64,000 nucleotides of DNA from a virus (IMGVR_UViG_3300032328_000860:128001-192000), one strand, 5' to 3'. Numbered from the stretch's first letter, positions 686 to 14,654 are shown. The notes: generated by a model from the letters alone, not told the origin. Made by a program: numbers and translations.

Positions 686-714
686 TTGACAATATCCGAT
701 AATAGAGGTATACT
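686..714 (+). promoter_or_regulatory. sigma70-type promoter with CCGAT in spacer
   Basis: TTGACA-17-TATACT directly downstream of paired dyad. Confidence 0.8.
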
Positions 715-806
715 AGAACACGATAAGTAGATGAGGGCCGCTGGCAGAATGATATCAAAGAAGCCACGGTTAAATGCAAGGCCGAGTATGGCATAACCCA
801 ATCTAT

Positions 807-853
807 TTGTCTTGCCTAATCCTACGGATTTGGATAGAGTGGATGTAGTCAGC
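807..853 (+). repeat. 47-bp asymmetric motif, copy 1
   Basis: TTGTCT-N3-CTAAT-N5-GGATTTG-N7-TG-N4-TAGTCAGC. Confidence 0.85.
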
Positions 854-872
854 GAAAATAAGGGAACTATTT

Positions 873-1268
873 ATGCAGTGTCGTGCTATTGCTGTTGGGA
901 TGATTGAGGAAACGTATAACACATATAAGAATGAGTGGTCTGTTGATGGAAGTCTATTTAGCGAACTGAATAAGTTTGATATTCCTGTTTGGAATAATAT
1001 GAACAGTGATACTAAGCGGGCTGCTATAGAGTACGTTTACCAAAATCGCAATACTATCGAACTACACTCTGGGGAGGTTGAGTCTTGGGTACAGGCTACA
1101 GCCTATTTTATGATTATGAATTTTGCTTGGCTTTTTAATCCTAATGGTGAAGTTGATATTGAAATCTTTTTCGATGATATGGACTTTATGATGGACGAGG
1201 ATGTTCTAACGGATAGCGACGTTCAAGAGCAGATGGGTATTCGAAAAAATTTCACGGATAAGTTTTAA
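873..1268 (+). CDS. hypothetical protein
   Basis: 131-aa ORF with RBS. Confidence 0.6.
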   Translation: MQCRAIAVGMIEETYNTYKNEWSVDGSLFSELNKFDIPVWNNMNSDTKRAAIEYVYQNRNTIELHSGEVESWVQATAYFMIMNFAWLFNPNGEVDIEIFFDDMDFMMDEDVLTDSDVQEQMGIRKNFTDKF

Positions 1269-1533
1269 AGGTCTTGACAACGATTGGTCGATAAGGTATA
1301 GTAGTAGCACAGAGGTGATTTATGTTTAAAGTAGTTGTTTGTGGTGGCCCGTATGACGGGGAAGTTATTGGTAATGATGGATGGATTTCATTCTCTGCTA
1401 CCCCGACATATCGTTTCGATAGTTATTCCGATGCTCAAGAGTTTATTGATAGCCGAAGTGCTAGAACAGCAGATGGTGATTATGGTATTGGTGCAACACT
1501 AAATATTGATGAAATAGATGGAGATATCTATTA

Positions 1534-2022
1534 ATGAAACCTAGACCACCACATGCCGAAGTGCGATTTCATCTCAGCCAAGGTGATCATTATATGCACT
1601 GGCAAGTTAAGGTGAAGCAAGGTGGGAGGACTATTGATGTCTATTATTATGACCCTAAAGAATATCAGTTAGAAATGAGGGGTTGTAAGTTATGGAACAG
1701 GCCGAATAAGGCTAAACAGGTATTTGAGGCTGGGGTGCATGATGTGAGTGGATGGGTTAGATGTAATGAGTTTATGTTGCGTAAGGATTTTTATCCCTCT
1801 TTGCCTGTTGACAATCTGGAAAAGTTGTATTATAATCCAATTCGTGACCCACACTGGCGACGAGAAAGCGATAACAATGAGTTCATTTGGGACAATAGCG
1901 AATATGATACCTTGATTACTGATGGTAAACAGGTATATGTCCTAGAAGAACGAAACGGAAATTTTGACGGTATTTACGAGATCGAACCTAAATATACAGA
2001 AAGTTTTGGAATATATGATTAA
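1534..2022 (+). CDS. hypothetical phage protein
   Basis: 162-aa ORF coupled to 1322..1534. Confidence 0.6.
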   Translation: MKPRPPHAEVRFHLSQGDHYMHWQVKVKQGGRTIDVYYYDPKEYQLEMRGCKLWNRPNKAKQVFEAGVHDVSGWVRCNEFMLRKDFYPSLPVDNLEKLYYNPIRDPHWRRESDNNEFIWDNSEYDTLITDGKQVYVLEERNGNFDGIYEIEPKYTESFGIYD

Positions 2023-2395
2023 GTTGGAACTGACGGTGCGTGAGTCTATGAATCTGGCTACCAGTTGGGCATACAATAACGATATCGAATTGTATCACAA
2101 AATCGTGAACGCTTTTGAGGCTGCTTTGGGCGTGAATCAGCGTCGGAGGGTGACGATCACTGGCGGTATGAGTACGGATAACCGTATCATGTGCATCAAG
2201 AGCATTCGTGAGCACACCGGATGGGGCTTGAAGGAGAGCAAGGATTGGACTGACGTTATCGTTGGTCATTATGACTCTTATGGTGTGTGGATCAACGGTG
2301 GAGACAAGAACACTGTGCTTCTGAAAACGCCACAAGCGGCAGAGCAACTGCTGCGCGAGCTGGTTGAGCGGGGTTGTGAGGGTTTTATCTCTTGA
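2015..2395 (+). CDS. ribosomal protein bL12 (L7/L12) C-terminal-domain-containing protein
   Basis: RIMCIKSIREHTGWGLKESKD matches bL12 KIxVIKxVRxxTGLGLKEAKD; C-terminal AEQLLRELVERG helix. Confidence 0.75.
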   Translation: MIKLELTVRESMNLATSWAYNNDIELYHKIVNAFEAALGVNQRRRVTITGGMSTDNRIMCIKSIREHTGWGLKESKDWTDVIVGHYDSYGVWINGGDKNTVLLKTPQAAEQLLRELVERGCEGFIS

Positions 2396-2477
2396 CCTAA
2401 AGCCTTGTCCCTAAAGAACTTAGGGCGAGGCGGGCCGGCCCGATTTGACGTAAGTGCTTATCCCATAACGACTTAGG
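2396..2477. repeat. 82-bp paired-dyad element, copy 2
   Basis: same 29+24+29 geometry; promoter TTGACA..TAGAAT at 2517-2545. Confidence 0.9.
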
Positions 2478-2677
2478 AACACTAAAAATTTTTTGAGGCT
2501 ATCTCAAGTTTGCGGCTTGACAATGCCGATACTATACTGTAGAATGATAGAGTACGAAGCAAGACGCTGCCACGAAGCCAACAATAGAAACCCTCATGGC
2601 ACTCTTGACAAGTAGGTATCTGTAGAGTATACTGATACTATAACGATTGGAACTGTAACACTTTTGGAGAATGTAAC

Positions 2678-2929
2678 ATGAAAAAGTTTTCTTTTGTTGT
2701 TGATGTGGTTGCTGATGATCTTGACCGTGAAGTTGTGACCGATTCGATTCGTTCGTGCCTGAGTGATACTCTGCCGGGTGACGTTCATGCGAATGTCAAG
2801 GCCGGTGAGGTCAAGGCGTTCAGCGAGCAGGGCTATAAGGTGTGGCGTGCCCGCGTCACGGGTGTGACTGCCGAGCAGGCCGGTGATGCTCACGATAGCA
2901 AGGTTGAGAAGGAAACTGTCGAGGCTTGA
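2678..2929 (+). CDS. hypothetical protein (GC-richer, probably early)
   Basis: GGAG RBS, upstream TTGACA/TATACT promoter. Confidence 0.7.
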   Translation: MKKFSFVVDVVADDLDREVVTDSIRSCLSDTLPGDVHANVKAGEVKAFSEQGYKVWRARVTGVTAEQAGDAHDSKVEKETVEA

Positions 2930-2975
2930 ACTTGAAATAACTGGACTATGCCAGTATAAATAGATTTTAGGCATA

Positions 2976-3180
2976 GTGCGGCGGGGTCAAACCCGCGTAA
3001 TGATGGTTAGTTGCAAGACTAAAAGGTGCAACTTAGAGGGTCTAACCAACCAGATAAGTCGGGTGGTTCCGTCGAAGTTATCGACCTCTAGCGTATATAC
3101 TAATGACGATGGTAAGACGATAACGCCATCAAACCGTATAGCCTACATGGGACGCCATGTGGGCTTGCGGCGTTGAGTGG
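2976..3180 (+). ncRNA. candidate structured ncRNA
   Basis: series of GC-rich hairpins in an AT-rich genome, between a CDS and tRNA-Arg. Confidence 0.4.
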
Positions 3181-3201
3181 GTTCTGTTATAATATCGACA
3201 C

Positions 3202-3273
3202 GGCCCCATAGTTAAATGGATATAACAAGTGCCTTCTAAGCACTGGTTAGAGGTTCGATTCCTCTTGGGGCTA
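3202..3273 (+). tRNA. tRNA-Arg(TCT)
   Basis: cloverleaf; AGTGC-CTTCTAA-GCACT; GTTCGA T-loop. Confidence 0.93.
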
Positions 3274-3328
3274 TTATGAATAATCACGCAGAAACGACCG
3301 AACAATTCTTAAAAGCTTGTGAGCTTCT

Positions 3329-3410
3329 CCTAAGTTCTTTACGCATAAAGACTTAGGGCAAAAGCGGCCGGCCCGATTCGACGTAAGTGCTTACCACACA
3401 ACGACTTACG
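3329..3410. repeat. 82-bp paired-dyad element, copy 3
   Basis: CCTAAGT-N15-ACTTAGG / CGTAAGT-N15-ACTTACG; promoter at 3440-3467. Confidence 0.9.
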
Positions 3411-3488
3411 ATTAAATTTTCTCTGCTAAAGTTTCTCTCTTGACTTGTCGATAATATAGTGTAGAATCGGTAGACACAGGAGAAGAAT

Positions 3489-4199
3489 ATGAAAACGGCA
3501 AATGGTAACGATAAGTTGGGTAAGGAAAACTGTATCGTAGTGAGTCGTCCGGTTGGTGATACTTGTCCTCCCGATTGTGATTTTCTCGGTAATGGTTGCT
3601 ATGCCGAGGATTTGGAAAATATCTATCCCGGTGTTCGTCCTGCTGCTATGCAAAATCTTATCACGGAAAAAAACCGTATCCGTGCGATGCTCGTAGATGC
3701 TGTCAAGAAAAATAAAGATGTTCGCTGGCATGAACGTGGCGACTTTTTTAAAGACGGTCAACTCGACAATGAATATGTCGATAATGTATTGTGGGCTTGT
3801 GAGAGTATTCTTGCTAGTGGTGGTAGTCTGCCGACCATGTGGGCTTATACCCATATCTATGATACTCGCTTGTCTACTGAACTTGGCAAGTACATAAATA
3901 TGTATGCTAGTATCCACGATGGCGAAGATATGAAACAAGCCAAGGTCGCTGGTTTCAAGCATTTCGCATGGTGTGATAGTGATACCAAAATCGCACCCAA
4001 GCGTCCGCGTAGCAAGGCCAAGGCCGATGCTTGGCGAGCAGCGTTGCCGAAGCTGGTTGTGTTGGAGGGTGAGAAGTTTATTACTTGTCCAGAAATTCGT
4101 CGTGGTCGCGGTGTCGTGACTTGCACCAAAACCAAAAATAGTGTACATTGTGATTTGTGTCCGCGTGGTTTGGCTAATGTCTTGTTTCCCTCCCACTAA
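3489..4199 (+). CDS. Gp88-like Cys-rich (putative Fe-S) phage protein
   Basis: TCPPDC..GCYA, RWHERGDF and WAYTH motifs; C-terminal CxxC. Confidence 0.55.
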   Translation: MKTANGNDKLGKENCIVVSRPVGDTCPPDCDFLGNGCYAEDLENIYPGVRPAAMQNLITEKNRIRAMLVDAVKKNKDVRWHERGDFFKDGQLDNEYVDNVLWACESILASGGSLPTMWAYTHIYDTRLSTELGKYINMYASIHDGEDMKQAKVAGFKHFAWCDSDTKIAPKRPRSKAKADAWRAALPKLVVLEGEKFITCPEIRRGRGVVTCTKTKNSVHCDLCPRGLANVLFPSH

Positions 4200-4208
4200 G
4201 AGAATATA

Positions 4209-4820
4209 ATGCCTACTAAATATAGCTATGTTGGAAAGTATGCCGATGGTGGAAGCCAAAACTCTTTTTATAAGGTAAGGGGTAAGGGTTATGGATTTAA
4301 AGGTTTTCCGAATAAGAGTTTGGCTACTTTTGCCCATGCGGTACAATCACACCTAGCACCATTGTCTGCCCCCCAGGTTCATAGTCCGGTTTGTAGGATT
4401 AGAGTTCCTAACTATTTTGTTAAGCAGAATAAAAAAGGAGAGATGATTACGGTTACGGAAATGGTATTGAGCGATTGGGGATATTTGACCGAAATCGCTA
4501 AACCATACCGTTGTCCTAGTAGTATTGATTGCTATGGTGATTGTGGTCATTGTACTGATTGTGGTAATTATTATCTTGTACAAGATTTGCTGAGTGATAT
4601 GGAAGATAATGGTATACTTTATACTGATGCCCATACAAAGAATCTGGGCTATGTTACCAGAGATAACGACAAACTATTGGTTGCTATTGATTTTGGTCGA
4701 GAAAGTTTAACTCCGATTAACGAAAAAGACTGGCCCGAAGTTTGTTGGGATGGTGCAGAAGAAGCGTACTGTAACTGTGAAGCTTGCTGTGGACAATATG
4801 AGGAGCCCGAATATGTCTAA
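4209..4820 (+). CDS. minimal protein-kinase-like protein
   Basis: DAHTKN catalytic-loop-like motif, IDFG motif, Gly-rich N-terminal loop. Confidence 0.65.
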   Translation: MPTKYSYVGKYADGGSQNSFYKVRGKGYGFKGFPNKSLATFAHAVQSHLAPLSAPQVHSPVCRIRVPNYFVKQNKKGEMITVTEMVLSDWGYLTEIAKPYRCPSSIDCYGDCGHCTDCGNYYLVQDLLSDMEDNGILYTDAHTKNLGYVTRDNDKLLVAIDFGRESLTPINEKDWPEVCWDGAEEAYCNCEACCGQYEEPEYV

Positions 4821-5053
4821 GTATTATATTAAAAGTAACACACTAGAGTTAATTTATTCTACTAATAAAAGTCCTCTTGAGGCGGCTTGTGATGCTCTGT
4901 GGGAATTGAACGATTTTGACGTATTAGATGAACATTTCTATATTGATGAAAGAGGATTTAAAGATTATTCAACAGCATTACCAGACACTAAAGTAATTAC
5001 CACAGAAAAAGTGATGAAAAAAGCTGGCTGGACTATGGAGAAATAAGATATAG

Positions 5054-5135
5054 CGTAAACCCTTGCTGCACAAAGACTTACGTGCAGCGGGGCCGGCCAA
5101 ATTTGTCGTAAGTTGTTTGGCCGCAAAGACTTAGA
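5054..5135. repeat. 82-bp paired-dyad element, copy 4
   Basis: CGTAAAC-N15-ACTTACG / CGTAAGT-N15-ACTTAGA, 24-bp linker. Confidence 0.88.
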
Positions 5136-5176
5136 ACCGATTAAAGATTTTCAGTCCGAATGTCGATAATTCTTCT

Positions 5177-5557
5177 GTGGGACAGAAAAGACTCTTGACA
5201 CGGAATGAACGTATGATACAATGGATTGGTGTAGCTATAGCTTTAGTGGGTTTCTTGTGGAATGGCATAAAGGACTATCAAAAGGGTGAAATTAAGTTGC
5301 CCTCTTTGCCACAAAAACAAGAGTTGACAAAAGTAATTTATCCGATACAATACTGCTTAATGGCGTATGATCCTAACGTAGATAAAGTTTTCTATAAACA
5401 CGAAGATGGGTTATGGTATGAGTTTCCACCGACACAGCGAAAATATCAAGATCAAGGTCAAGAAGCCGTGGCAATTGTCAACGGGACATCGGCAAGACCG
5501 CAGCGATACTACTATGGACAATCGGCCCAAGCGTCAGCGAACACGCAGCGGTATTGA
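5177..5557 (+). CDS. hypothetical membrane-anchored protein
   Basis: hydrophobic WIGVAIALVGFLW segment; start uncertain. Confidence 0.5.
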   Translation: MGQKRLLTRNERMIQWIGVAIALVGFLWNGIKDYQKGEIKLPSLPQKQELTKVIYPIQYCLMAYDPNVDKVFYKHEDGLWYEFPPTQRKYQDQGQEAVAIVNGTSARPQRYYYGQSAQASANTQRY

Positions 5558-5648
5558 CAAAAGTTGGCGTAAAGAGTATGATATATAGTCGTGTCTACCC
5601 ATGTGGATAGAGCGATCTGGGTTCGTTAGAGATAGCGAACCTTGCAGT

Positions 5649-5721
5649 GCCGGTATAACTCAGTTAGCAGAGTGTCAAATTTGTAATTTGAATGTCGTGG
5701 GTGCAAATCCTACTACCGGCT
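5649..5721 (+). tRNA. tRNA-Thr(TGT)
   Basis: GCCGGTA/TACCGGC acceptor; TCAAA-TTTGTAA-TTTGA. Confidence 0.9.
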
Positions 5722-5774
5722 TTATGAGTCGAAAGAATATGAACAAAGGTAATGGTAGAGAATGTAGAAGATGA

Positions 5775-5846
5775 TCCGGAGTGGTGAAACTGGTATCACA
5801 AAAGGTTTTGGCCCTTTTATTTCTGGATCGTACCCAGACTCCGGAA
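5775..5846 (+). tRNA. tRNA-Gln(TTG)
   Basis: TCCGGAG/CTCCGGA; AAAGG-TTTTGGC-CCTTT. Confidence 0.88.
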
Positions 5847-5851
5847 TTTGA

Positions 5852-5933
5852 TGCTCGGTGGCGAAATTGATAAACGCAGTTGACTGTTAATCAACCGTCG
5901 AAAGACTTGCTGGTTTGAGTCCAGCCCGAGCAG
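5852..5933 (+). tRNA. tRNA-Asn(GTT) with long variable arm
   Basis: TGCTCGG/CCGAGCA; GTTGA-CTGTTAA-TCAAC; variable arm GTC-GAAA-GAC. Confidence 0.88.
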
Positions 5934-5936
5934 CTT

Positions 5937-6023
5937 GGAATGTAGGCAGATATCGGCTCGCTGCACAGCTTTGCTAAAGCTGGCCGGGTAAAACCGGTGA
6001 AAGTTCGACTCTTTCACATTCCG
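5937..6023 (+). tRNA. tRNA-Ser(GCT)
   Basis: GGAATGT/ACATTCC; CAGCT-TTGCTAA-AGCTG; long variable arm. Confidence 0.92.
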
Positions 6024-6028
6024 TTTTT

Positions 6029-6099
6029 ATTGGCGTAGTTCAATAGTAGAATAACTGTCTCCAAAACAGTAGATGGTGGTGCAATTCCACCCGCCTTTG
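6029..6099 (+). tRNA. tRNA-Trp(CCA), imperfect acceptor stem
   Basis: ACTGT-CTCCAAA-ACAGT; acceptor ATTGGCG/CGCCTTT has two U-U mismatches. Confidence 0.8.
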
Positions 6100-6111
6100 C
6101 TTAATAAGTTT

Positions 6112-6182
6112 GCGTGTGTAGTTCAATGGTAGAACCTTTGATTTCCAATCAAATGACGAGAGTTCGATTCTCTCTACACGCT
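6112..6182 (+). tRNA. tRNA-Gly(TCC)
   Basis: GCGTGTG/TACACGC; TTTGA-TTTCCAA-TCAAA. Confidence 0.93.
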
Positions 6183-6243
6183 TCAAAAACTAAAGACTGG
6201 TCTTGACTCTGGACGATAGGTGTATTAGAATAGATCACAATAC

Positions 6244-6318
6244 ACTGCGTGTGCTCGCCGGTAGTGGGCATCAGGCTTATATCCTGAGTAAGAGGGGGTT
6301 CGACTCCCCAACGCAGTA
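6244..6318 (+). tRNA. tRNA-Ile(TAT), atypical
   Basis: ACTGCGT/ACGCAGT; TCAGG-CTTATAT-CCTGA; TTCGACT T-loop. Confidence 0.8.
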
Positions 6319-6406
6319 TTTTTATGTGACGGAGGCTGACGTTAGAGTTACGAATACCAGTTGTGTTGCGAGGTGTCTGGGCTTAAATTAAAACATCTCG
6401 CTTTAT

Positions 6407-6478
6407 GGCCCCATAGTATAATAGTTAGTATACCGGGCTTTCATCCCGGAGATCTGGGAGCATAACCCAGTGGGGTCA
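6407..6478 (+). tRNA. tRNA-Glu(TTC)
   Basis: GGCCCCA/TGGGGTC; CCGGG-CTTTCAT-CCCGG. Confidence 0.88.
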
Positions 6479-7030
6479 TTTTTTACTCTCTGTATATTCT
6501 ATTACCTCTCTGCATAGTTGAATATATTCATCATAAGTTAATTCTGTTTTAGAAAGATTAGCTATTCTGCAAGCTATTTGACAATTATCTAAACTATTAT
6601 CCCCTCCTTTAGATTTGGGTATGATATGATCTAAATGATATGATTTTGAATCATTCAAATCTATATTTCTTCCTGTTAAATAGCATTTAGGATTTGTACC
6701 TATTTTCTCTAAGAGATCTTTTGGCTTAAACATAGGTTTACCAACTCCGAACTTTCTAATTTTAGATGATAGTTTTTGTTCTATAGTTTTAATTTTAAAA
6801 GAATATTTATTATTGTCATTTTTTTTAGTTGAATAAAATTTATATATTTTGTTATTTAAGATGTGAGAATCTTTATAGGATTTATTTCTTGTTAATGTCT
6901 TAATTTTTTGATTAGCACCACAATAATAAGAAACAGTGCCTTTAGAACAATTAAGTTTAGAAGCTATATAGCTGTATGTATGGTTTTGACTTCTTAAGAA
7001 GAAGATTTTATCAGCTAATTTATCTTTCAT
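6476..7030 (-). CDS. HNH homing endonuclease
   Basis: N-terminal HTH; LDHIIPKSKGGDNSLDNCQIACRIANLSK. Confidence 0.9.
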   Translation of the reverse strand: MKDKLADKIFFLRSQNHTYSYIASKLNCSKGTVSYYCGANQKIKTLTRNKSYKDSHILNNKIYKFYSTKKNDNNKYSFKIKTIEQKLSSKIRKFGVGKPMFKPKDLLEKIGTNPKCYLTGRNIDLNDSKSYHLDHIIPKSKGGDNSLDNCQIACRIANLSKTELTYDEYIQLCREVIEYTESKK

Positions 7031-7323
7031 AGTTCAAATCCTTAATTATTAATACACCAAAAGTTTCGGATTCGCTCAAGTTTTTTCTTGACAAAGCCGA
7101 TTCTAGTGTTAGAATGACAACCATCACCACTACCAACTAGGAAAAAATCATGAAAAATGTTCATATTTATGATATTTTGAATAGTGAAGGTCAAACTCTT
7201 GCTGATCTTATTATTCCTATGGATAGTTCTGATTTTACTTACCTTGAAGTTTTTGATAAGGTTCAAAATGCCTATTTGAATGATGTTGATAGTTATAGCT
7301 ATAGCGTGATTGAATAAATAGTT

Positions 7324-7396
7324 GGGCCTCTAGCTCAATTGGCAGAGCAAGGAGCTTTTAACTCTTAGGTTCGGGGTTCGAGTCCCCGGGGGCCCA
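7324..7396 (+). tRNA. tRNA-Lys(TTT)
   Basis: canonical cloverleaf; AGGAG-CTTTTAA-CTCTT. Confidence 0.95.
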
Positions 7397-7417
7397 CTTA
7401 ATAGATTTGGTACATTT

Positions 7418-7918
7418 ATGAAATCGTTAAATGAAATGGAAATTGAAGAAGTTCGCAATACCGATGGCGGAATCATTCAAGGAGCTAGCCATACTTGTCA
7501 TGTATTGAATCATAAGATCAGAAATAAGATTATAATTAAGGCTGTATGTGATCTTCGAAAGATTAGTAAAGACTTTGATAGTATTGTTTGTTGTGGCGTA
7601 AGCGGTTTGATGGTTGTGCCGCAAATTGCTGAGATTATTAACAAAAATATTTTGGTGGTACGCAAAGATGAAAGAAGATATAGCAATTTTACAACTGAGG
7701 GGGTTGCTCCTTTTAGGTACGTGATTATTGACGATCTTATTTGCTCTGGAAATACTATAAAGCATATTACTTCCACACTTAAAGAAGAATATCCTAGATC
7801 TAGATGTATAGGTATTTACTGTTATCTTCCACAAGAAACAGTATTCAAACCAGATACGGAAGGATCTAAAATCTGTGAAAAGAGATTTGGGTCGCCGCTC
7901 CTAAACCTAGACCACTAA
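7418..7918 (+). CDS. type I phosphoribosyltransferase-family protein
   Basis: PRPP-binding loop YVIIDDLICSGNT. Confidence 0.85.
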   Translation: MKSLNEMEIEEVRNTDGGIIQGASHTCHVLNHKIRNKIIIKAVCDLRKISKDFDSIVCCGVSGLMVVPQIAEIINKNILVVRKDERRYSNFTTEGVAPFRYVIIDDLICSGNTIKHITSTLKEEYPRSRCIGIYCYLPQETVFKPDTEGSKICEKRFGSPLLNLDH

Positions 7919-7981
7919 AGGACTTAGGACGAAGGCGGGCGGCCCGGTTTGACGTAAGTGCTTTGCTCTCAACAACTTACG
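7900..7981. repeat. 82-bp paired-dyad element, copy 5
   Basis: CCTAAAC-N15-ACTTAGG / CGTAAGT-N15-ACTTACG; promoter 8012-8039. Confidence 0.9.
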
Positions 7982-8082
7982 ACACAAGAAATTTTTTCGC
8001 AAGTTTAGCTGTTGACAGGCCGATAATCTATGATAGAATCAGCGTATCAGAGTGAGAAACAGATAACACGAAAGGGTCGATT

Positions 8083-9030
8083 ATGCCTGCTATGGTTGAA
8101 AAGATGATGTTTGTTGGTGCTACCCCCTGGCATGGTGAGGGTACGCAGTTGGATGAGAATCCGTCCATCAGCGATGCTATTGTTGCCGCTGGTCTGGATT
8201 GGGAAGTTGGTACTAAGCCGTTGTTTACTGCGGAAGGTACTCCGGTTAATGCCAAGGCTACCTATCGTAAGGATGATAATCGCGTGTTGGGTGTTGTGGG
8301 GCCACGTTATACCCCGCTCCAGAATCAGGATGCGTTCGATTGGTTTCAGCCGTTCCTCGACGCTAGCGAGTGCCAACTGCACACTGCCGGTTCGCTCAGT
8401 GAGGGCGAAAAGGTTTGGGTGTTGGCTCAACTCAACCGTGCGAACAGCGAAATTGTTCGTGGCGACGAGGTGAGTAAGTTTATTCTGCTGTCGAATAGTC
8501 ACGATGGTACAACGTCGATCCGCGTCGGATATACTCCGATTCGGGTGGTCTGCGTCAATACTCTCGCGGCTGCTCATAATAGTAAGGATAGTCAGCTTAT
8601 CCGTATTCGTCATACTCGTTCCAGTAAAGTTAATCTGGAAAACGTGCGTGATATTATGGACAATATTAATGTGCAGTTTGAAGCGACTGCGGAACAGTAT
8701 CGGTTCCTCGCGTCGAAAGACTTTAATCAGAACGATATTCAGAAGTATGTTAAGGTTATGCTTGGAATTGATAAGACCCCGGAAGAGGATATCAAGACTC
8801 GCACCAGAAATATCATGGACGAGATTCTTGCACTGGTCGAAGGCCCGCACCAGAGTGCTGCCGGAGTTCGTGGAACTTGGTGGGCCGCTTATAACGGCTA
8901 CAATGAGTACCTTAATTACAATAAGGGTCGAACGGTGAGCAACCGCCTTGACTCTCTGTGGTTCGGTCAGAATGGTGCTGATAATCTTAAGGCTCTTAAT
9001 ACTGCCGTGGATTTTGCGAACGCTGTCTGA
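8083..9030 (+). CDS. DUF932-family (phage/plasmid-like) protein
   Basis: PWHGEG, AGLDWEV, YTPLQN, NSHDG, PIRVVCxNT, GTWWAAYN motifs. Confidence 0.9.
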   Translation: MPAMVEKMMFVGATPWHGEGTQLDENPSISDAIVAAGLDWEVGTKPLFTAEGTPVNAKATYRKDDNRVLGVVGPRYTPLQNQDAFDWFQPFLDASECQLHTAGSLSEGEKVWVLAQLNRANSEIVRGDEVSKFILLSNSHDGTTSIRVGYTPIRVVCVNTLAAAHNSKDSQLIRIRHTRSSKVNLENVRDIMDNINVQFEATAEQYRFLASKDFNQNDIQKYVKVMLGIDKTPEEDIKTRTRNIMDEILALVEGPHQSAAGVRGTWWAAYNGYNEYLNYNKGRTVSNRLDSLWFGQNGADNLKALNTAVDFANAV

Positions 9031-9052
9031 TCTTTTCTTGTCACGATGAAAA

Positions 9053-9094
9053 GGGGAAGCCGCCGTAGGGGAAACTCTGCGGCGGTTCTCTTTT
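9053..9094 (+). terminator. intrinsic terminator
   Basis: GCCGCCGTAGGG-GAAA-CTCTGCGGCGGT followed by T-run. Confidence 0.8.
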
Positions 9095-9111
9095 ATCAAA
9101 ACGGGAATTGA

Positions 9112-9193
9112 CGTAAGTAGTTGCCGCATAAGGACTTACGACAAAACGGGCCGGCCAAATTAGTCGTAACTTTAAGTGCCATAAGGGTTTACG
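9112..9193. repeat. 82-bp paired-dyad element, copy 6 (single extra dyad at 9248-9276)
   Basis: CGTAAGT-N15-ACTTACG / CGTAACT-N15-GTTTACG. Confidence 0.88.
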
Positions 9194-9298
9194 TCAAGTT
9201 TCCTATAGACAAAGCGGCCAAACGACGATATACTATGGAGAGGTGGTCGTAAGTGCATGGGAGGTAAGAGTTTAGATAAAAATAGTAATAAATCAATT

Positions 9299-9345
9299 TT
9301 GTCTCTGCTAATCCTGCGGATTTGCTGACGTTGCTGATAGTCAGC
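9299..9345 (+). repeat. 47-bp asymmetric motif, copy 2
   Basis: TTGTCT-CTG-CTAAT-CCTGC-GGATTTG..TG..TAGTCAGC. Confidence 0.85.
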
Positions 9346-10445
9346 CAGCTTTTGGGGGTATATTATATTTATAGGAGATACAAACTATGAATATATTAAA
9401 GCCACCAGCGAATTTCTGTTACTATCTAATAGTTTACTTATGGATACAGATTTTATTATGGTACGGATTTTAATTATGCAGAAAAGAAAAATGAACGATA
9501 TTCTTAGATCGCTTAATTATACCTTGGATTGTTCTAATCAAAGACTCAAATGGTATATGGATACTAATAATGAGAGGTATCTTACTGATTGTGAGATGTA
9601 TTTGAGAGTTGCTAATATTTATATGGCGGAAATTAATAAGGAAAGAAAGCATGAAGATTGTTGTAATATTTGATTTTCCTGAGATTCAGGGTATTGAGGA
9701 TGGGAACCGTGCTATTGATACTCTTAAAAATGATCTAACAATTATGTCTAATACTACTTTATATCAGTGGTATATAGAAAAGGTACTTAGTGATAATAAA
9801 TTCTTAAGTACTGAACCAATTAATCTGTCTGTTAGTTGATATAAATCCTTTATAGTCAAGGGGTTGTGACTAGCCTATCAATACATGTGGTGACATATGA
9901 GGATTGGTCTGTAATACCCTTCATTTACGGTCTGCCGGGCACTATTAAAACTCTTTGTGATCATGGCTATGTGGTCTAAATGGGTTAAAGTAAAAACGTT
10001 TTGAAGACTGATAAGATATTGCAATAGTAATTTGAGGGACATTTACTCAAACTATTATAAAAATTCTCAATAAGCAAAGTACATAGAAATGATATTTGGG
10101 TAAGATTAGATCCAATTAATTATGGCTATTATTCTTCTTTGAACCTGGGTGAAATATTAATTCGTCCCCTAAAAGATTTGCTAAGAAAAATTTAACCATT
10201 GATGCTGCAACTTTGTAGTCAGCTCCTATAGCTTCATTGTATCTAAAAAAACCAACAAGTCAAGGGTTTATGATTATGAAAAATTTCATAAACGTAGAGA
10301 TAGGAATAGCCCTCATCGGAGATGATGAAGAGCCTGTGGTTGATAAGAAGTAATATATATATTATATCCTCACCCGCTGCATAATATATAATGTCTATCT
10401 GGTTGGTTGTCAAGTAGTAAACTTTTTGTAATTACAAGGTAATGA

Positions 10446-10474
10446 CGTAAGCTGTTGATTCTCAAGCACTTGCG
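10446..10474. promoter_or_regulatory. single 29-bp dyad between divergent promoters
   Basis: CGTAAGC-N15-ACTTGCG; contains IHF-like AATCAA-N4-TTA on - strand. Confidence 0.65.
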
Positions 10475-10765
10475 TCAAGTGGGTCTGTGTGGTACAATGA
10501 CTGTGTAGTGGTTAGTCTCACCTTTGGAGTTTTTTATGCTTGGTATTTGTTTGTGCTGTGGTATTTGTGTTGGAATTTTTAACGGATATATGCAAGTCAC
10601 TTACAATTAGGATAGTAATACAAACATCTATTTAACGTGTTTCTGATTCTAACTCAACTACTTTAAGATTCATTATCTAAAGATAAACCAATAATAGTAT
10701 ATAAATACATAAAACACGAACCAATGCTCGTTAATTGTATTTGCTAATAAATAGTAAATAACAAT

Positions 10766-10816
10766 AAGCCCTCTGGCGCCTCTTTACAATGCGTACTTCC
10801 AGAGGGTTTTTTATTT
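10766..10816 (+). terminator. probable terminator
   Basis: AAGCCCTCTGG...CCAGAGGGTTT followed by T-run. Confidence 0.6.
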
Positions 10817-10853
10817 AATAATTATAGGTAGTCTTCCATTATAAGAGACCCAT

Positions 10854-10900
10854 TTGTATTATCTAATATATCGGGTTTGGTGGTAATGGTGATAGTCAGC
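10854..10900 (+). repeat. 47-bp asymmetric motif, copy 3
   Basis: TTGTAT-TAT-CTAAT-ATATC-GGGTTTG..TG..TAGTCAGC. Confidence 0.85.
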
Positions 10901-11074
10901 CAATAATAGGGATCAAGGTAAAAGTTTTATTATGATGTCTATTGCTTTTCAATTCTTCTATTGTAGAATGAACTAGTCAACGAAGCCAATAGTCAAGCAG
11001 ATCGGTAAAACGAATGTGGGGCAGTTGGAATCATGGGCAAAAGTATTTTTAACTTTAAACCATGAGGTGTTCTG

Positions 11075-11374
11075 ATGAAAACTAGATATATTAATGATAA
11101 TAATCGTCAAGATGTTCAAAGAAAATATATTGACCAGATCTTGGGCGAAATGGATTTTATGCAGATTAAGGATGGGCTTAGAAATTATCTAAATCAAGAG
11201 AAAGATAAATCTGGCAATTACTCTTTGGAATCTGAAATTAGAAAAGAGGCTCCTGAAGTTTTAGTAGACAATTGGGAAGACTTTAACCAACCAGCTACTT
11301 TAACAAAAAAGAAAAACAGTTATGGTTCTGAAATAGACTATCCTTCGACACAGGAGGAACTATTCCATGCCTAA
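11075..11374 (+). CDS. hypothetical protein (paralog of 11423..11671)
   Basis: shared INxxNxxxxxxxYxDxILxxMD...EK..Y.N..LE.EI...P.VL pattern. Confidence 0.7.
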   Translation: MKTRYINDNNRQDVQRKYIDQILGEMDFMQIKDGLRNYLNQEKDKSGNYSLESEIRKEAPEVLVDNWEDFNQPATLTKKKNSYGSEIDYPSTQEELFHA

Positions 11375-11422
11375 AGACTTTAACTGCGGTAATGGTAAAC
11401 TCATAAAAAAAGAGGTGCTACT

Positions 11423-11671
11423 ATGAAACATTTTAAGATTAATAGCGAAAATAAAGAATATATAGTTAAGAGATATACTGACTATATATTGTCTCGCATG
11501 GACAACTTAGAAGTATGGGAAGGCTTCAAGGAATATTTCTATAAGGAAAAATTAGCATATCCTAATGAAACTTTGGAGCAAGAAATTAATAGATACTGTC
11601 CTTCAGTACTAGAAGATCATATTGCTGAAGATATAGTAGGGAAAGGGCGAGAATATGCCAAGACTATTTAA
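11423..11671 (+). CDS. hypothetical protein (paralog of 11075..11374)
   Basis: tandem paralog; GAGG RBS. Confidence 0.7.
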   Translation: MKHFKINSENKEYIVKRYTDYILSRMDNLEVWEGFKEYFYKEKLAYPNETLEQEINRYCPSVLEDHIAEDIVGKGREYAKTI

Positions 11672-11943
11672 TAGAATTATAAGTTTTAGAGTAGAGGGTG
11701 AAATTTATGATAACACCACTACTGCAGAACAGATCATAAAGAGTTATGATTGGTCATTTAAACATGACGGGGGTAATTCTATATTCTGTTCTGCTTCCTA
11801 TGATGATAATCGTGGTCGTATAACTAACATGACTAGATTAAATAAAATTCAGAAGTGTAAAAAATCTGACACTGAATATTTTATTGTATAGTTTATCTAC
11901 TTATTAAGATAAGATAAGTTGAGCGGCATAAAAACCCTTCAAC

Positions 11944-11990
11944 TTGTCTTACCTTATATTAACGGTTTGATTTTTTTGATAGTAGTCAGC
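11944..11990 (+). repeat. 47-bp asymmetric motif, copy 4
   Basis: TTGTCT-TAC-CTTAT-ATTAA-CGGTTTG..TG..TAGTCAGC. Confidence 0.8.
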
Positions 11991-12031
11991 TAAAATATTA
12001 TATTAATAGTCTGGCATAATATTGGGTCCTA

Positions 12032-12078
12032 TAGTCTCACCTAATATTCTAGATTTGGTTTTAGTGGTAATAGTCAGT
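12032..12078 (+). repeat. 47-bp asymmetric motif, copy 5
   Basis: TAGTCT-CAC-CTAAT-ATTCT-AGATTTG..TG..TAGTCAGT. Confidence 0.8.
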
Positions 12079-12193
12079 CAAAACTAAATGATCGAATTAA
12101 CAAATTGATTCTTGACCCTATGTACCTCAGGCTTATCATAGACAACCTAACCGTCGCATGGACGCGACATACTTTCCAACAGGAGATATTTTT

Positions 12194-12409
12194 ATGAAGA
12201 AGTTTGCACTTGTGGTAGCCCTAATGGCAATTGGTTCGTCATCATTTGCTGGTGAATGTGTTAGTGGTAATTGTACTCTGCGTAGTCGATTTGTCAATGT
12301 TACTAAGGAAGTAATTTCAGTACCAGTAACAGTAACACGCCGAACAGTTGAAGCTACTCGCAATATTGGTCGCAAAAGTGTGGCCCGCGTTCGTAGCGTT
12401 GTTCGTTGA
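12194..12409 (+). CDS. small secreted protein (signal peptide, CxxGxC, Arg/Val-rich)
   Basis: MKKFALVVALMAIGSSSFA-GECVSGNC; AGGAG RBS. Confidence 0.75.
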   Translation: MKKFALVVALMAIGSSSFAGECVSGNCTLRSRFVNVTKEVISVPVTVTRRTVEATRNIGRKSVARVRSVVR

Positions 12410-12537
12410 ACAATATTATGATTGATAATCTGAAGAGTTAGTATAATTTATCAGATTATAAATTACCAGAGAATTCCCCCAAATAAACTTGGGGGTCTTT
12501 TCTTAAATACATTTATTATTTACTCAAGGAGGAATTT

Positions 12538-12882
12538 ATGAAAAATTTTATGATTGCATTAGTACTTATTTTTGGCACTAGTTTTACCGCAGAGGCGGCT
12601 CGACCAAACTATTATAGTCAGCCAACTAATAGGACATATTCATATACTAGTGCTCAACATCTAGGTAGTGATCAAGATCGTTGCCAGGCCGAAGCAAATT
12701 ATATGGCAGCTAATAATATCTCTGGTCATGTATGGGGAACCATTGGAAATTTTGAAGGCGTGGGATATGGTGGTAGTCCAAATTGTAACACTTGTACTCC
12801 AAGAAGTCAAATGAATTTAACAGGAGATGCGTCAGCACAAGGTAGGAATGGTATGTGGTACAGAGTAAGGAGTTGGAGGTAA
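12538..12882 (+). CDS. secreted Cys-containing protein, Planctomycete-style
   Basis: Sec signal ending AEA; FEGVG..C..GDA.AQGRNGMWYRVRSWR. Confidence 0.7.
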   Translation: MKNFMIALVLIFGTSFTAEAARPNYYSQPTNRTYSYTSAQHLGSDQDRCQAEANYMAANNISGHVWGTIGNFEGVGYGGSPNCNTCTPRSQMNLTGDASAQGRNGMWYRVRSWR

Positions 12883-12972
12883 ATGACGGAAAGTTTAATT
12901 ATTACTATAGTAGTATGGGATCTTATACTGTTAAGCGGAATCATATTATATCTCATCAAAATTAATAATTAG

Positions 12973-13045
12973 GCAAGAGTAGCTCAATTGGCAGAGCGTC
13001 AGGTTTCCAACCTGAATGTTGAGGGTTCGATTCCCTTCTCTTGCT
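12973..13045 (+). tRNA. tRNA-Gly(TCC), second copy
   Basis: GCAAGAG/CTCTTGC; TCAGG-TTTCCAA-CCTGA. Confidence 0.94.
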
Positions 13046-13060
13046 TTTAATAGACGTATT

Positions 13061-13107
13061 TTGTAACAGCTAATATAACGGGTTTGGGTATTATGGGTAC
13101 AGTCAGC
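13061..13107 (+). repeat. 47-bp asymmetric motif, copy 6
   Basis: TTGTAA-CAG-CTAAT-ATAAC-GGGTTTG..TG..CAGTCAGC. Confidence 0.85.
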
Positions 13108-13336
13108 TAAATGTTATTTTATGATTACAATTAAGTTAGATAAAAATTTATCCTGCGAAAAGATATGCGCACAAATTCAGTTACTAATTAATCAGACCCA
13201 AGCTTCTATGAATATGGCTAATAGTTTATTAGTTATAGATATAAAAAATATTATAGATAGTGACACTGTTACTGAAGTGCCTAAGTTAACTTATAACAAT
13301 AGTCCCGATTGACACGGGGCCACTTAACTATTACTA

Positions 13337-13383
13337 TAGTCTTAGCTAAACATTCAACTTTGGAATTTATGGAAACAGTCAGC
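13337..13383 (+). repeat. 47-bp asymmetric motif, copy 7
   Basis: TAGTCT-TAG-CTAAA-CATTC-AACTTTG..TG..CAGTCAGC. Confidence 0.78.
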
Positions 13384-13391
13384 GAGACTTT

Positions 13392-13658: not shown

Positions 13659-14654
13659 GTATCTAATTTCTTTTGTGACCAGCATCTTGGTTGTAGAAAC
13701 CATGGTATACTTTTTATCTCAATGGTTTATTAATTATGCGTCCAATTTTGACAATAGCCCAGACAATAAATAAACAACCAATCTGTCCTACATTTATTCA
13801 TGATCCCTTAACAAGACTAGCAGCAATAATAATACTACTAGCACTATGCTCAATAGTCCTATACCAAGTTGGGAAATATTTTAATGAGATATGATGACAT
13901 AGGTAATTATGGCCACATTATAATTCCCATCTGCATCATTATTTATATGGTACTATATTCATATTTGAACAAAGAATACGGGGCGATAGATGAGTAGTCC
14001 AGAAATAAAATCATGGCTAATTTTAGCATTCATTTATTTAATATGTATTATATTCACAATCTTTATAGTTAGGGCTGAAAATGAAAAATAAAGAATTTCA
14101 TATTCCTTTTGTCAAGAATCTAGCTTTTATATGCCTGGTAACAATAGTTTCTATGGTTTCTGTACGATTTTTTCTAGTAAACATATTATCCTCCTACCAA
14201 AAATCTCCCATTTATACCTCTCATCAATCACAGAATTCATCAGAATCACCGGAATAATAGCTAATAACATCTATTTACTATTAAAAGTATTCAATTTTTA
14301 CTTATTGAATTTGCCCGTGGTGGAAACGGTTAAAGACCAAGATAGGAAATGACCGATAACTCCTATTGACAAGTCTACTGTCTGGTGGTATACTTTCTAT
14401 TGTTAGTAGTGTGAGTTTTGTTTGTTTTGATCGGGAAAATATGTATAAACAGATTCTTTTGAGTGATAAGGAACTAGAGCTTTTAGCTTCCATAATTCAG
14501 TCTTATATTGATGAAAAAAAGACCAAACCCAACCTTCAAATCAATAATGCTCATATTATTTTAAGACATATATCGGGTAAAAAATCATCAGAAAATTCTA
14601 ATCAAATAGCCTTTTATGGTAAATGAGGACGAAATCCCACAACAATCAAATAAA

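Follow-up and report, generated by a model that had tools for sequence, protein, structure and literature searches.

A long, undescribed intergenic motif of a freshwater phage family as a candidate ECF-like promoter

What is the role of a motif of about 50 bp that a phage keeps, always in one orientation, between the small genes of its early/accessory region? The question is raised by a stretch of 64,000 nucleotides (nt) from the viral sequence IMGVR_UViG_3300032328_000860. This stretch, called the window here, covers positions 128001-192000 of a single contig of 223,437 bp (34.6% GC) from an uncultured freshwater phage. An initial annotation had described seven gap-free elements of 47 bp near its left end and had offered as explanations an origin iteron or initiator site, a packaging or injection signal, a phage-specific promoter and a directional recombination site. 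Judged from sequence comparison, the motif is best supported as an undescribed, unusually long promoter for an alternative sigma factor of the extracytoplasmic function (ECF) type, one that may generate leaderless transcripts. The most unusual feature of the motif, which goes beyond what was first described, is that two boxes inside it covary by identity.

A conserved element of fixed geometry

A degenerate 47-mer, with up to three mismatches allowed, matched the window at exactly the seven sites first reported (Table 1), all on the + strand and all intergenic, and the same pattern found no match in 100 dinucleotide-preserving shuffles. Copies in the whole genome were sought by a pattern scan and with a covariance model trained on 97 diverse copies. 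Eight strong copies were found (53-67 bits), one of them at genome position 126764, together with a ninth of 46 nt (39.9 bits) at 120988 and a tenth, weak one (21.3 bits) at 122865. Every copy is on the + strand, and all are confined to about 20 kb (genome 120.9-141.4 kb). Six of them do lie at 9.3-13.4 kb of the window, as had been stated, but to call this zone gene-poor overstates the case; it is packed with small open reading frames (ORFs) of 60-115 amino acids (aa).

Exact-pattern scans located the motif at at least 119 loci of IMG/VR and at least 120 metagenome loci, the latter mostly on freshwater contigs. Among the matches listed there are at least 246 distinct instances from IMG/VR loci and at least 430 once the metagenome contigs are added; the instance counts below rest on these matches. 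Because it recurs across both collections, the motif is no quirk of a single genome. The relatives are syntenic, and their copies hold the same positions and head the same small operons: before own_873/1534, after the DUF932 gene, and before own_11075, own_12158, own_13121 and own_13392. Two of the proposed roles fit this distribution poorly. The iterons or initiator sites of an origin would be expected in a tight cluster, but the copies are spread over 20 kb at distances of 88 bp to 8 kb, each heading a conserved operon, which makes this role unlikely. A packaging or injection signal is unlikely because about ten copies stand at syntenic gene starts.

Counted in columns from the first nucleotide of the motif, the consensus of the distinct instances is TTGTCTCACCTAATCCTnCGGATTTGG..nnnnTGG..ATAGTCAGCGARAAT, with G3, A13, T24, G42, A45 and G46 invariant. 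The element is 47-52 bp long, and conservation extends to about column 53. The gap-free alignment holds in the window. In relatives, 437 matches have 13 nt between TTTG and AGTCAG and 40 have 12 nt, and no further length recurs. The conserved blocks are centred at about columns 3.5, 12, 23.5, 34.5 and 43.5, which bears out the observation that they recur roughly once per helical turn. The description of the motif as not palindromic needs qualifying, since most copies carry the inverted repeat AATCC-nnn-GGATT at columns 12-16 and 20-24. Copies with a perfect dyad lie mostly beside sigma70 promoters (63 of 125, against 8 of the 79 weak-dyad copies), and weak-dyad copies stand mostly directly 5' of ORFs (40 of 79).

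The mutual information (MI) over all pairs of columns was dominated by identity and not by complementarity. The column pairs concerned are 28/37 (MI 1.13), 29/38 and 27/36, which together make up two boxes, at columns 27-29 and 36-38. Identity between the paired positions was in clear excess (z = 10.3, 8.2 and 6.4 in collapsed sets), with observed frequencies of 0.91, 0.82 and 0.63 against 0.61, 0.29 and 0.28 expected, and adjacent positions were at chance. The matching rule is kept over 68 box types. At orthologous sites both boxes change in concert (GGGTA/GGGTA, GGAT/GGAT, GGTT/GGTT, GGAA/GGAA), and within this genome the boxes differ between all strong copies. The boxes have no complementary partner in the aligned columns, on the 5' strand or within 300 nt; there is no complementary covariation anywhere in columns -25 to +85; and variants with one box or three boxes were not found. 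Because the covariation is by identity and comes without a partner, a length variant or a reading-frame account, selection acts on the matching of the boxes and not on their sequence. The selected property is the match between the two boxes, and what they say is free.

To our knowledge, no model of a promoter, an operator or an RNA structure predicts that two boxes should be the same. In the mechanisms known to depend on sameness, a tRNA, primer or transcript pairs anew with a second site identical to the first, and we could not connect such mechanisms to the boxes of the motif. Several other explanations were set aside. Slippage or phase variation of a 9-nt unit is excluded by the missing one-box and three-box variants. 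Alternative pairing of the boxes with the 5' strand is excluded by the lack of covariation at columns 5-10, and pairing with the flanks by the lack of any helix excess within 150 nt; a small excess of exact reverse complements upstream came from one orthologous terminator loop that had been counted several times. A mini-ORF that begins with DTG at columns 33-35 and is coupled through an ATGA overlap fails on two counts, in that the overlap occurred 14 times against 13 in a control frame and the conserved codons show no synonymous variation. Translational bypass between take-off and landing codons does not suit an intergenic element in which a 9-nt shift stays in frame and, on our own reading, no systematic stop lies between the boxes. 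Nor does a transposon with target-site duplication, since comparison of the copies by eye shows that box 2 of a copy differs from box 1 of the copy that follows.

Some relatives (L087:405-830, L100 and others) carry additional stand-alone TAGTCAGC/TAGTCAGT words 10-18 nt 3' of a full motif. Each is preceded by TGG or TGGGT, as if box 2 and the 3' block made up a repeatable sub-unit.

A candidate promoter and its possible sigma factor

With somewhat better than even confidence, we read the motif as a phage-specific promoter of ECF/sigmaE-like geometry, GGATTTG-N16-(G)TCAGC, from which transcription would start at about column 54. Among the roles first proposed this is the one favoured by the geometry, by the positions of ATG codons and tRNA 5' ends, by the upstream terminators and by a sigma factor of the phage. 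The more general proposal of a long protein-binding site on one face of the DNA is compatible with it, in so far as the protein would be an RNA polymerase (RNAP) holoenzyme.

The motif tends to stand where one transcription unit ends and another begins. Terminator T-tails are concentrated just 5' of column 1, where the nearest 20 nt contain 24 of them and a bin of that size otherwise about 5, and other copies follow the stop codon of an ORF by 0-12 nt. In 13 instances a terminator is followed by the motif and then by an ORF with no sigma70-like site (at least 9 of 12 positions) in between, and in 59 more the motif is likewise followed by an ORF. Of 430 instances, 52 have a tRNA 3' end between -5 and +4 nt relative to column 1; these tRNAs are of six types, none of them with an encoded CCA. 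In 45 instances a strong sigma70 promoter lies 80-99 nt upstream, and the leader in between belongs to one of two conserved families. In another setting, also of 45 instances and at several distinct loci, the -35 hexamer of a strong sigma70 promoter begins 13-16 nt past column 47. The remaining copies lead directly into an ORF or a tRNA.

The features just downstream suggest where the RNA begins. In a collapsed set of instances followed by an ORF of at least 45 aa, an ATG 4-13 nt past column 47 (peak at 7-8 nt) was without a Shine-Dalgarno sequence (SD) in 30 of 32 cases, and an ATG 14-20 nt past it had one in 10 of 11; by the same crude measure an SD is present in 45% of ordinary genes and in 14% of random sequence. 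Three copies in the window do end 8-19 nt before an ATG, as had been noted (19 nt for copy 807; for the other two see Table 1). tRNAs directly downstream of the motif begin 6-8 nt past column 47, and 115 tRNA 5' ends in these phages lie 7-11 nt (mode 9) past a sigma70 -10 hexamer. The distance from AGTCAGC to the RNA is thus that expected of a -10 element, which would place the start near columns 53-56. A start near these columns would in turn imply mRNAs that are leaderless or nearly so.

The motif is not a promoter for the housekeeping sigma factor in disguise. No register of the motif, on our own reading of its columns, gives both sigma70 hexamers, in agreement with the initial annotation. 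The sole candidate, TTGGxy-N18-GARAAT, puts the start beyond the ATG of conserved genes, and a promoter scan found true sigma70 promoters elsewhere and none at the motif. Sigma54 promoters, the T4 MotA box, the DnaA box, IHF sites, the Bacteroidetes -33/-7 promoter and the G-quadruplex all misfit in spacing or bases when compared by eye with their consensus sequences. A literature search for an 8-mer of the motif returned primer noise only.

The phage encodes a protein of 198 aa that matches Sigma70_r4 at 53 bits and Sigma70_ECF weakly (E = 3.7e-4). Its AlphaFold2 model has a predicted local distance difference test (pLDDT) score of 75.5, and the top Foldseek matches are all sigma factors, full-length, including the ECF factors sigmaL and sigmaE. 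Judged by this model, the protein is a genuine two-domain sigma factor (sigma2 and sigma4). In 47 IMG/VR loci it is conserved, with 60-92% identity; its homologues share contigs with the motif, and its gene has a host-type promoter, TTGACA-17-TAAAAT, about 270 nt upstream. We infer that this sigma factor is the one that pairs with the motif. A second sigma-like protein, of 221 aa, has a weak match to region 2 only and no region 4; its gene stands at the head of the structural block behind a perfect TTGACA-17-TATAAT promoter. GGTGTAWWA words occur genome-wide and look like -10-only promoters, and the 221-aa protein may be their natural partner, so that two sigma factors would correspond to two classes of promoter. 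A possible D5-like transcriptional regulator (271 aa) adjoins the gene of the 221-aa protein.

A polymerase encoded by the phage could be an alternative to the host enzyme. No phage RNAP was detected by Pfam, PHROGs or PDB sequence searches or by a DxDxD scan, a negative that is weak for two unannotated giant proteins. A search with PF00940 gave no match, nor did it in its control genomes. The phage P23-45 has an RNAP with the motif DFDGD fused to its tape-measure protein (PMC10770324). The tape-measure protein of the present phage holds only a lone DVDID, and the P23-45 precedent does not apply. The two giant proteins belong to the virion module and have no Pfam, PHROGs or PDB sequence match.

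Under the promoter reading, the core RNAP of the host, together with a phage-encoded sigma factor that has a -35-reading domain, would recognize the motif, and the motif would head about ten small transcription units (small ORFs and some tRNAs) in the early/accessory region. Upstream contacts would be made at TTGTCT (about -53 to -48) and CTAAT (about -44 to -40). They would be followed by the -35-like GGATTTG (about -34 to -28), the 16-nt spacer, the -10-like (A)GTCAGC (about -13 to -7) and a purine-rich GARAA as the discriminator. A start 6-8 nt past AGTCAGC would yield leaderless or very short-leader mRNAs, or tRNAs almost without a 5' leader. Where the motif adjoins a host-type sigma70 promoter, the two may act as tandem promoters with different times of use.

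The closest parallel among characterized promoters is offered by those of E. coli sigmaE, which consist of GGAACTT, a spacer for which N16 is strongly preferred, and (T/C)GGTCAAAA, with a discriminator of 5-6 nt and UP-like elements upstream (Rhodius et al. 2006, PMC1312014). Like them, the motif is bipartite, with conserved -35 and -10 elements, a rigid 16-nt spacer and GTCA in the -10 element, and it has conserved sequence 5' of the -35 element and a short discriminator before the putative start. As in ECF systems, the phage encodes a sigma factor of ECF size with sigma2 and sigma4 domains. Unlike sigmaE promoters, the motif reads GGATTTG instead of GGAACTT and TCAGC instead of TCAAA; it is conserved over about 52 bp, with two specific upstream blocks in place of A/T-rich UP elements; its -35 element is also the 3' arm of an inverted repeat; and its spacer holds two boxes that must match.

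Regulons of phage-encoded sigma factors are known from gp28 and gp33/34 of Bacillus phage SPO1, gp36 of phiEco32 and gp55 of T4. The present system would resemble them in that a sigma factor made from host-type early promoters redirects the host core RNAP to a phage consensus, and in that early and phage-specific promoters stand in tandem before the same genes. Those regulons cover middle or late genes genome-wide, whereas the motif occurs in about ten copies within a 20-kb early/accessory region of tiny ORFs and tRNAs, and their promoters are without matched boxes.

A number of points weigh against a promoter. The start site is placed from downstream features only, and its calibration on tRNAs comes from six instances of two locus types. 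Part of the scarcity of SD sequences follows from the way in which they were scored, as the interval from -16 to -4 reaches into the conserved motif; GAG at columns 48-50 might also serve as a weak SD. The match to the sigmaE consensus is partial (4 of 7 and 3 of 5 bases). The 198-aa sigma factor could serve the genome-wide GGTGTA class or another motif instead, and as sigma factor and motif co-occur within one phage family only, shared ancestry alone would give the same pattern. Matched boxes play no role in any known promoter, and the promoter reading does not explain those in the spacer. Finally, the conservation over 52 nt, the inverted repeat with its U-G-type variants and the exact abutment of tRNA 3' ends would suit an RNA element as well, and in one family of leaders the first block of the motif forms the 3' strand of a covarying RNA helix.

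If the motif is a promoter, it defines a compact, sequence-rich regulon of about ten units of tiny ORFs and tRNAs in a widespread family of uncultured freshwater jumbo phages. The sigma factor and the motif would then make a directly testable pair, an aid to annotating hundreds of metagenomic phage genomes and possibly an orthogonal expression part. With a leaderless layout, if true, a proteobacterial-type phage would join the small number of systems known to depend on leaderless mRNAs. Whichever reading of the motif holds, the matched-box rule constrains it cleanly and with strong statistics, and standard models of promoters, operators and RNA structures do not predict it; its explanation could reveal a new principle of recognition or templating.

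Alternative readings of the motif

The motif could instead act as RNA, as a punctuation or processing element of long early transcripts that is cut by a host or phage endonuclease or cleaves itself; we regard this as the main rival, a serious though clearly less probable alternative. Cuts near both edges would free the 3' end of the upstream tRNA, noncoding RNA or mRNA and make the 5' end of the downstream tRNA or SD-less mRNA, which agrees with the way in which the motif abuts CCA-less tRNAs on one side and precedes tRNAs and ATG codons by 6-8 nt on the other. All copies are co-oriented with transcription, and those 80-99 nt past the -10 hexamer of a strong sigma70 promoter are inside its leader. 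The leaders of family A, that of copy 807 among them, are structured RNAs, and the first block of the motif takes part in their closing, covarying helix. The inverted repeat tolerates U-G-type pairs on the + strand, with 50 T-G combinations at columns 14/22 against 1 of the A-C type. A Pistol self-cleaving ribozyme is present in the same region (Table 1), and ribozyme classes tend to cluster in phage genomes.

Against these points stand the absence of complementary covariation noted above and the weak support for the hairpin, which is 75.7% paired against 73.5% in shuffles, with a covariation score of 0.149 against 0.137. In 79 of 225 instances three or fewer of its five pairs are left, and it is missing in about a third of copies. 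Rfam 15 gave no match at any copy at E values up to 10, and its match to the Pistol ribozyme shows that the search works on this sequence. Many copies directly follow efficient-looking terminators and would thus rarely be transcribed from upstream. The 5' ends of tRNAs are already explained by RNase P, and as the distance to the downstream tRNAs equals that of a true -10 element, a promoter explains it more simply.

Known elements that act through RNA or hairpins resemble the motif in part. The RNase III sites of T7 and the tRNA punctuation of mitochondria are also about 50 nt long, lie exactly between genes, abut the ends of neighbouring RNAs and are co-oriented; unlike them, the motif has no long double-stranded RNA or covarying structure and often follows terminators. 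It also does not group with structured RNAs, in that its sole strong covariation is by identity and has no long-range partner. The hairpin promoters of the N4 virion RNAP share a stem of 5-7 bp, a 3-nt loop and a few co-oriented copies in the early region. The motif differs from the N4 type in that its hairpin is not obligatory, no virion or phage RNAP gene was detected, and the inferred start would lie about 36 nt from the loop and not about 11.

A bolder possibility, which we regard as doubtful, is that the motif is an RNA spacer excised at both edges by a new ribozyme or phage nuclease, or alternatively a promoter with an undescribed, box-based mode of recognition or initiation. As a spacer, it would reach from a tRNA 3' end at column 1 to columns 54-56, where the next tRNA or leaderless mRNA would begin, and the matched boxes would serve a re-pairing or templating step. 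Such a step is otherwise known only from the take-off and landing codons of translational bypass, from prime-and-realign polymerases and from template jumping.

It is quite unlikely, in our estimate, that the motif is a DNA site for a repressor, activator or insulator of the phage, bound over one face of about 50 bp and not itself a promoter, which would control neighbouring sigma70 promoters or block read-through between units. The rough helical periodicity of the blocks, the fixed distance to a following sigma70 -35 hexamer and the preference of perfect-dyad copies for the neighbourhood of sigma70 promoters all suit such a site, and two tandem boxes 9 bp apart resemble the half-sites of a direct-repeat operator. 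About 70 instances run into an ORF with no sigma70-like promoter to regulate, a single protein cannot account for boxes that are free in sequence but matching, and no candidate was found among the neighbouring early proteins. The HTH (helix-turn-helix) gene on the - strand was rejected as the regulator, since it encodes an HNH homing endonuclease.

That the motif is a boundary of recombination modules, either a patch of homology or the site of a site-specific enzyme through which co-infecting relatives shuffle gene cassettes, is very improbable, and such a boundary would best be explained by the conservation of the repeat. Its flanks are indeed mosaic: one upstream leader is joined at the motif to at least three different downstream modules, and by a crude ungapped measure, sharing of one flank only between pairs of instances is more frequent at the motif (0.84) than 150-200 nt downstream (0.43). 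Just 3' of the motif, gene content differs among relatives, in which own_873 and own_1322 are present or absent. Any conserved repeat turns into a patch for recombination, however, so mosaicism is no proof of function. The positions are largely syntenic, no recombinase is associated with the motif, no signature of site-specific crossover was seen, and the box comparison that fails for a transposon fails here too. Strict orientation, fixed distances to ATG codons and tRNAs and invariant bases are not needed for exchange driven by homology. Of the directional recombination site first proposed, the mosaic flanks are thus what is left.

Four independent metagenome contigs (L128, L138, L185 and one more) end 2-8 nt past column 47, above chance, as a recombination boundary might have it. 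These ends near AGTCAGC probably reflect branching of the assembly graph at a mosaic junction or, less probably, real DNA ends or nicks.

The PeSL (promoter early stem-loop) elements of T4-type phages, as set out by Arbiol, Comeau and Krisch in 2010, reportedly combine a host sigma70 early promoter with a terminator-like stem-loop, and shuffling of PeSL cassettes between relatives is said to have been proposed in T4. Like PeSL, the motif is repeated, co-oriented and intergenic, flanks small variable ORFs in a plastic early region and sits at mosaic junctions. Unlike PeSL, it has no sigma70 -35 and -10 hexamers and only a short 5-bp dyad, so that it behaves alike without being a member.

Genome setting and neighbouring features

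Table 1. Copies of the motif in the window, parts of copy 807, and other features named in the text (window positions unless marked as genome positions)
Feature	Position	Strand	Score	Sequence features	Context
Copy 807	807-858	+	67.3 bits	Class I, perfect AATCC/GGATT dyad; boxes GGATA/GGATG	Within leader of sigma70 promoter 686-714; then SD (AAGGGA) and ATG at 873
Proposed -35-like element of copy 807	826-832	+		Columns 20-26, GGATTTG
Identity-covarying boxes of copy 807	833-835, 842-844	+		Columns 27-29 and 36-38
Proposed -10-like element of copy 807	848-853	+		Columns 42-47, GTCAGC (A41-G46 invariant)
Copy 9299	9299-9350	+	60.3 bits	Class I; boxes TTGCTGA/TTGCTGA	3' of DUF932 gene and strong terminator 9058-9087; ORF start 9388
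Copy 10854	10854-10905	+	64.3 bits	Class II, weak dyad; boxes GGTGG/GGTGA	Terminator-like hairpin with T run about 50 nt before (about 10765-10805, by eye); heads operon 11075-11891, no + strand sigma70-like promoter between
Copy 11944	11944-11995	+	53.1 bits	Boxes GATTT/GATAG	First of tandem pair, 3' of ORF 11655-11891
Copy 12032	12032-12083	+	63.2 bits	Boxes GGTTT/GGTAA	Heads ORFs 12158-12409 and 12538-12882; syntenic in relatives
Copy 13061	13061-13112	+	56.7 bits	Boxes GGGTA/GGGTA	14 nt 3' of tRNA-Gly (12972-13046); ATG 13121, 13 nt beyond column 47, without SD
Copy 13337	13337-13388	+	54.7 bits	Boxes GGAAT/GGAAA	ATG 13392, 8 nt beyond column 47, without SD; heads gene of conserved Lys-rich 88-aa protein; same layout in relatives
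Family A leader	721-806	+		About 85 nt	Downstream of sigma70 promoter 686-714
Pistol ribozyme	2940-3002	+	51 bits (gathering score 34.5)		Between small ORF and tRNA-Arg
HNH homing endonuclease	6476-7030	-		N-terminal HTH	GGTGTA word before the gene
DUF932 protein	8083-9030	+	E = 2.7e-49	315 aa
Giant virion-module protein	genome 38075-46162	-		2,695 aa
Giant virion-module protein	genome 46174-52833	-		2,219 aa
221-aa sigma-like protein	genome 114592-115257 (L120:2592-3257)	-		221 aa
198-aa sigma factor	genome 214593-215189 (L245:1093-1689)	+		198 aa

The genome encodes rIIA/rIIB, a clamp loader, a DNA ligase and a tape-measure protein of 4,355 aa, and the window holds 12 tRNAs. Large ORFs on the - strand at 38-114 kb make up the structural block, and a block of small + strand ORFs begins at about 115.3 kb. 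A megablast search against named phages gave no match, and rIIA is about 32% identical to that of named phages; the phage has only distant named relatives.

About 12 strong sigma70 promoters, which match TTGACA-N16-17-TATAAT at 11-12 of 12 positions, lie on the + strand at window 686-8039 and also at 14366. They are nearly absent from the 9.3-13.4 kb zone, which has six copies of the motif. The host evidently uses canonical TTGACA/TATAAT promoters. The strong promoters (window 686-8039; L120:14583 and others) are set apart as a family by a conserved word of the spacer, (C)CGATAA(T), which lies between TTGACA and the -10 hexamer. With 5' ends 7-11 nt beyond that hexamer, the tRNA genes of the phage family, many of them without an encoded CCA, are expected to have 5' leaders of about 1-4 nt. 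A swap between motif and sigma70 promoter at the own_7150 locus was ruled out, since the relatives have both.

The leaders found between a sigma70 promoter and the motif deserve a description of their own. Family A is represented in the window by the leader of copy 807 and occurs also in L088, L094, L096 and others. Its fold is three-way-junction-like, with covarying stems (CCGCTGGC/GCCACGG against GATAGCC/GGCTATC against ACAACC/GGTTGT) and an invariant 17-nt loop, AGAATGATATCAAAGAA, and it matched no Rfam family. Family B (GACGTAAGG...GGGTTAGG) takes the same position at other loci.

The HNH homing endonuclease gene is the sole - strand gene in the + strand tRNA/early region. The DUF932 protein is the most conserved protein of the region, with 75-91% identity in relatives; members of its family have been described from conjugative plasmids, in the leading regions. 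Overlapping its gene is an antisense ORF of about the same length, probably an artefact of GC content.

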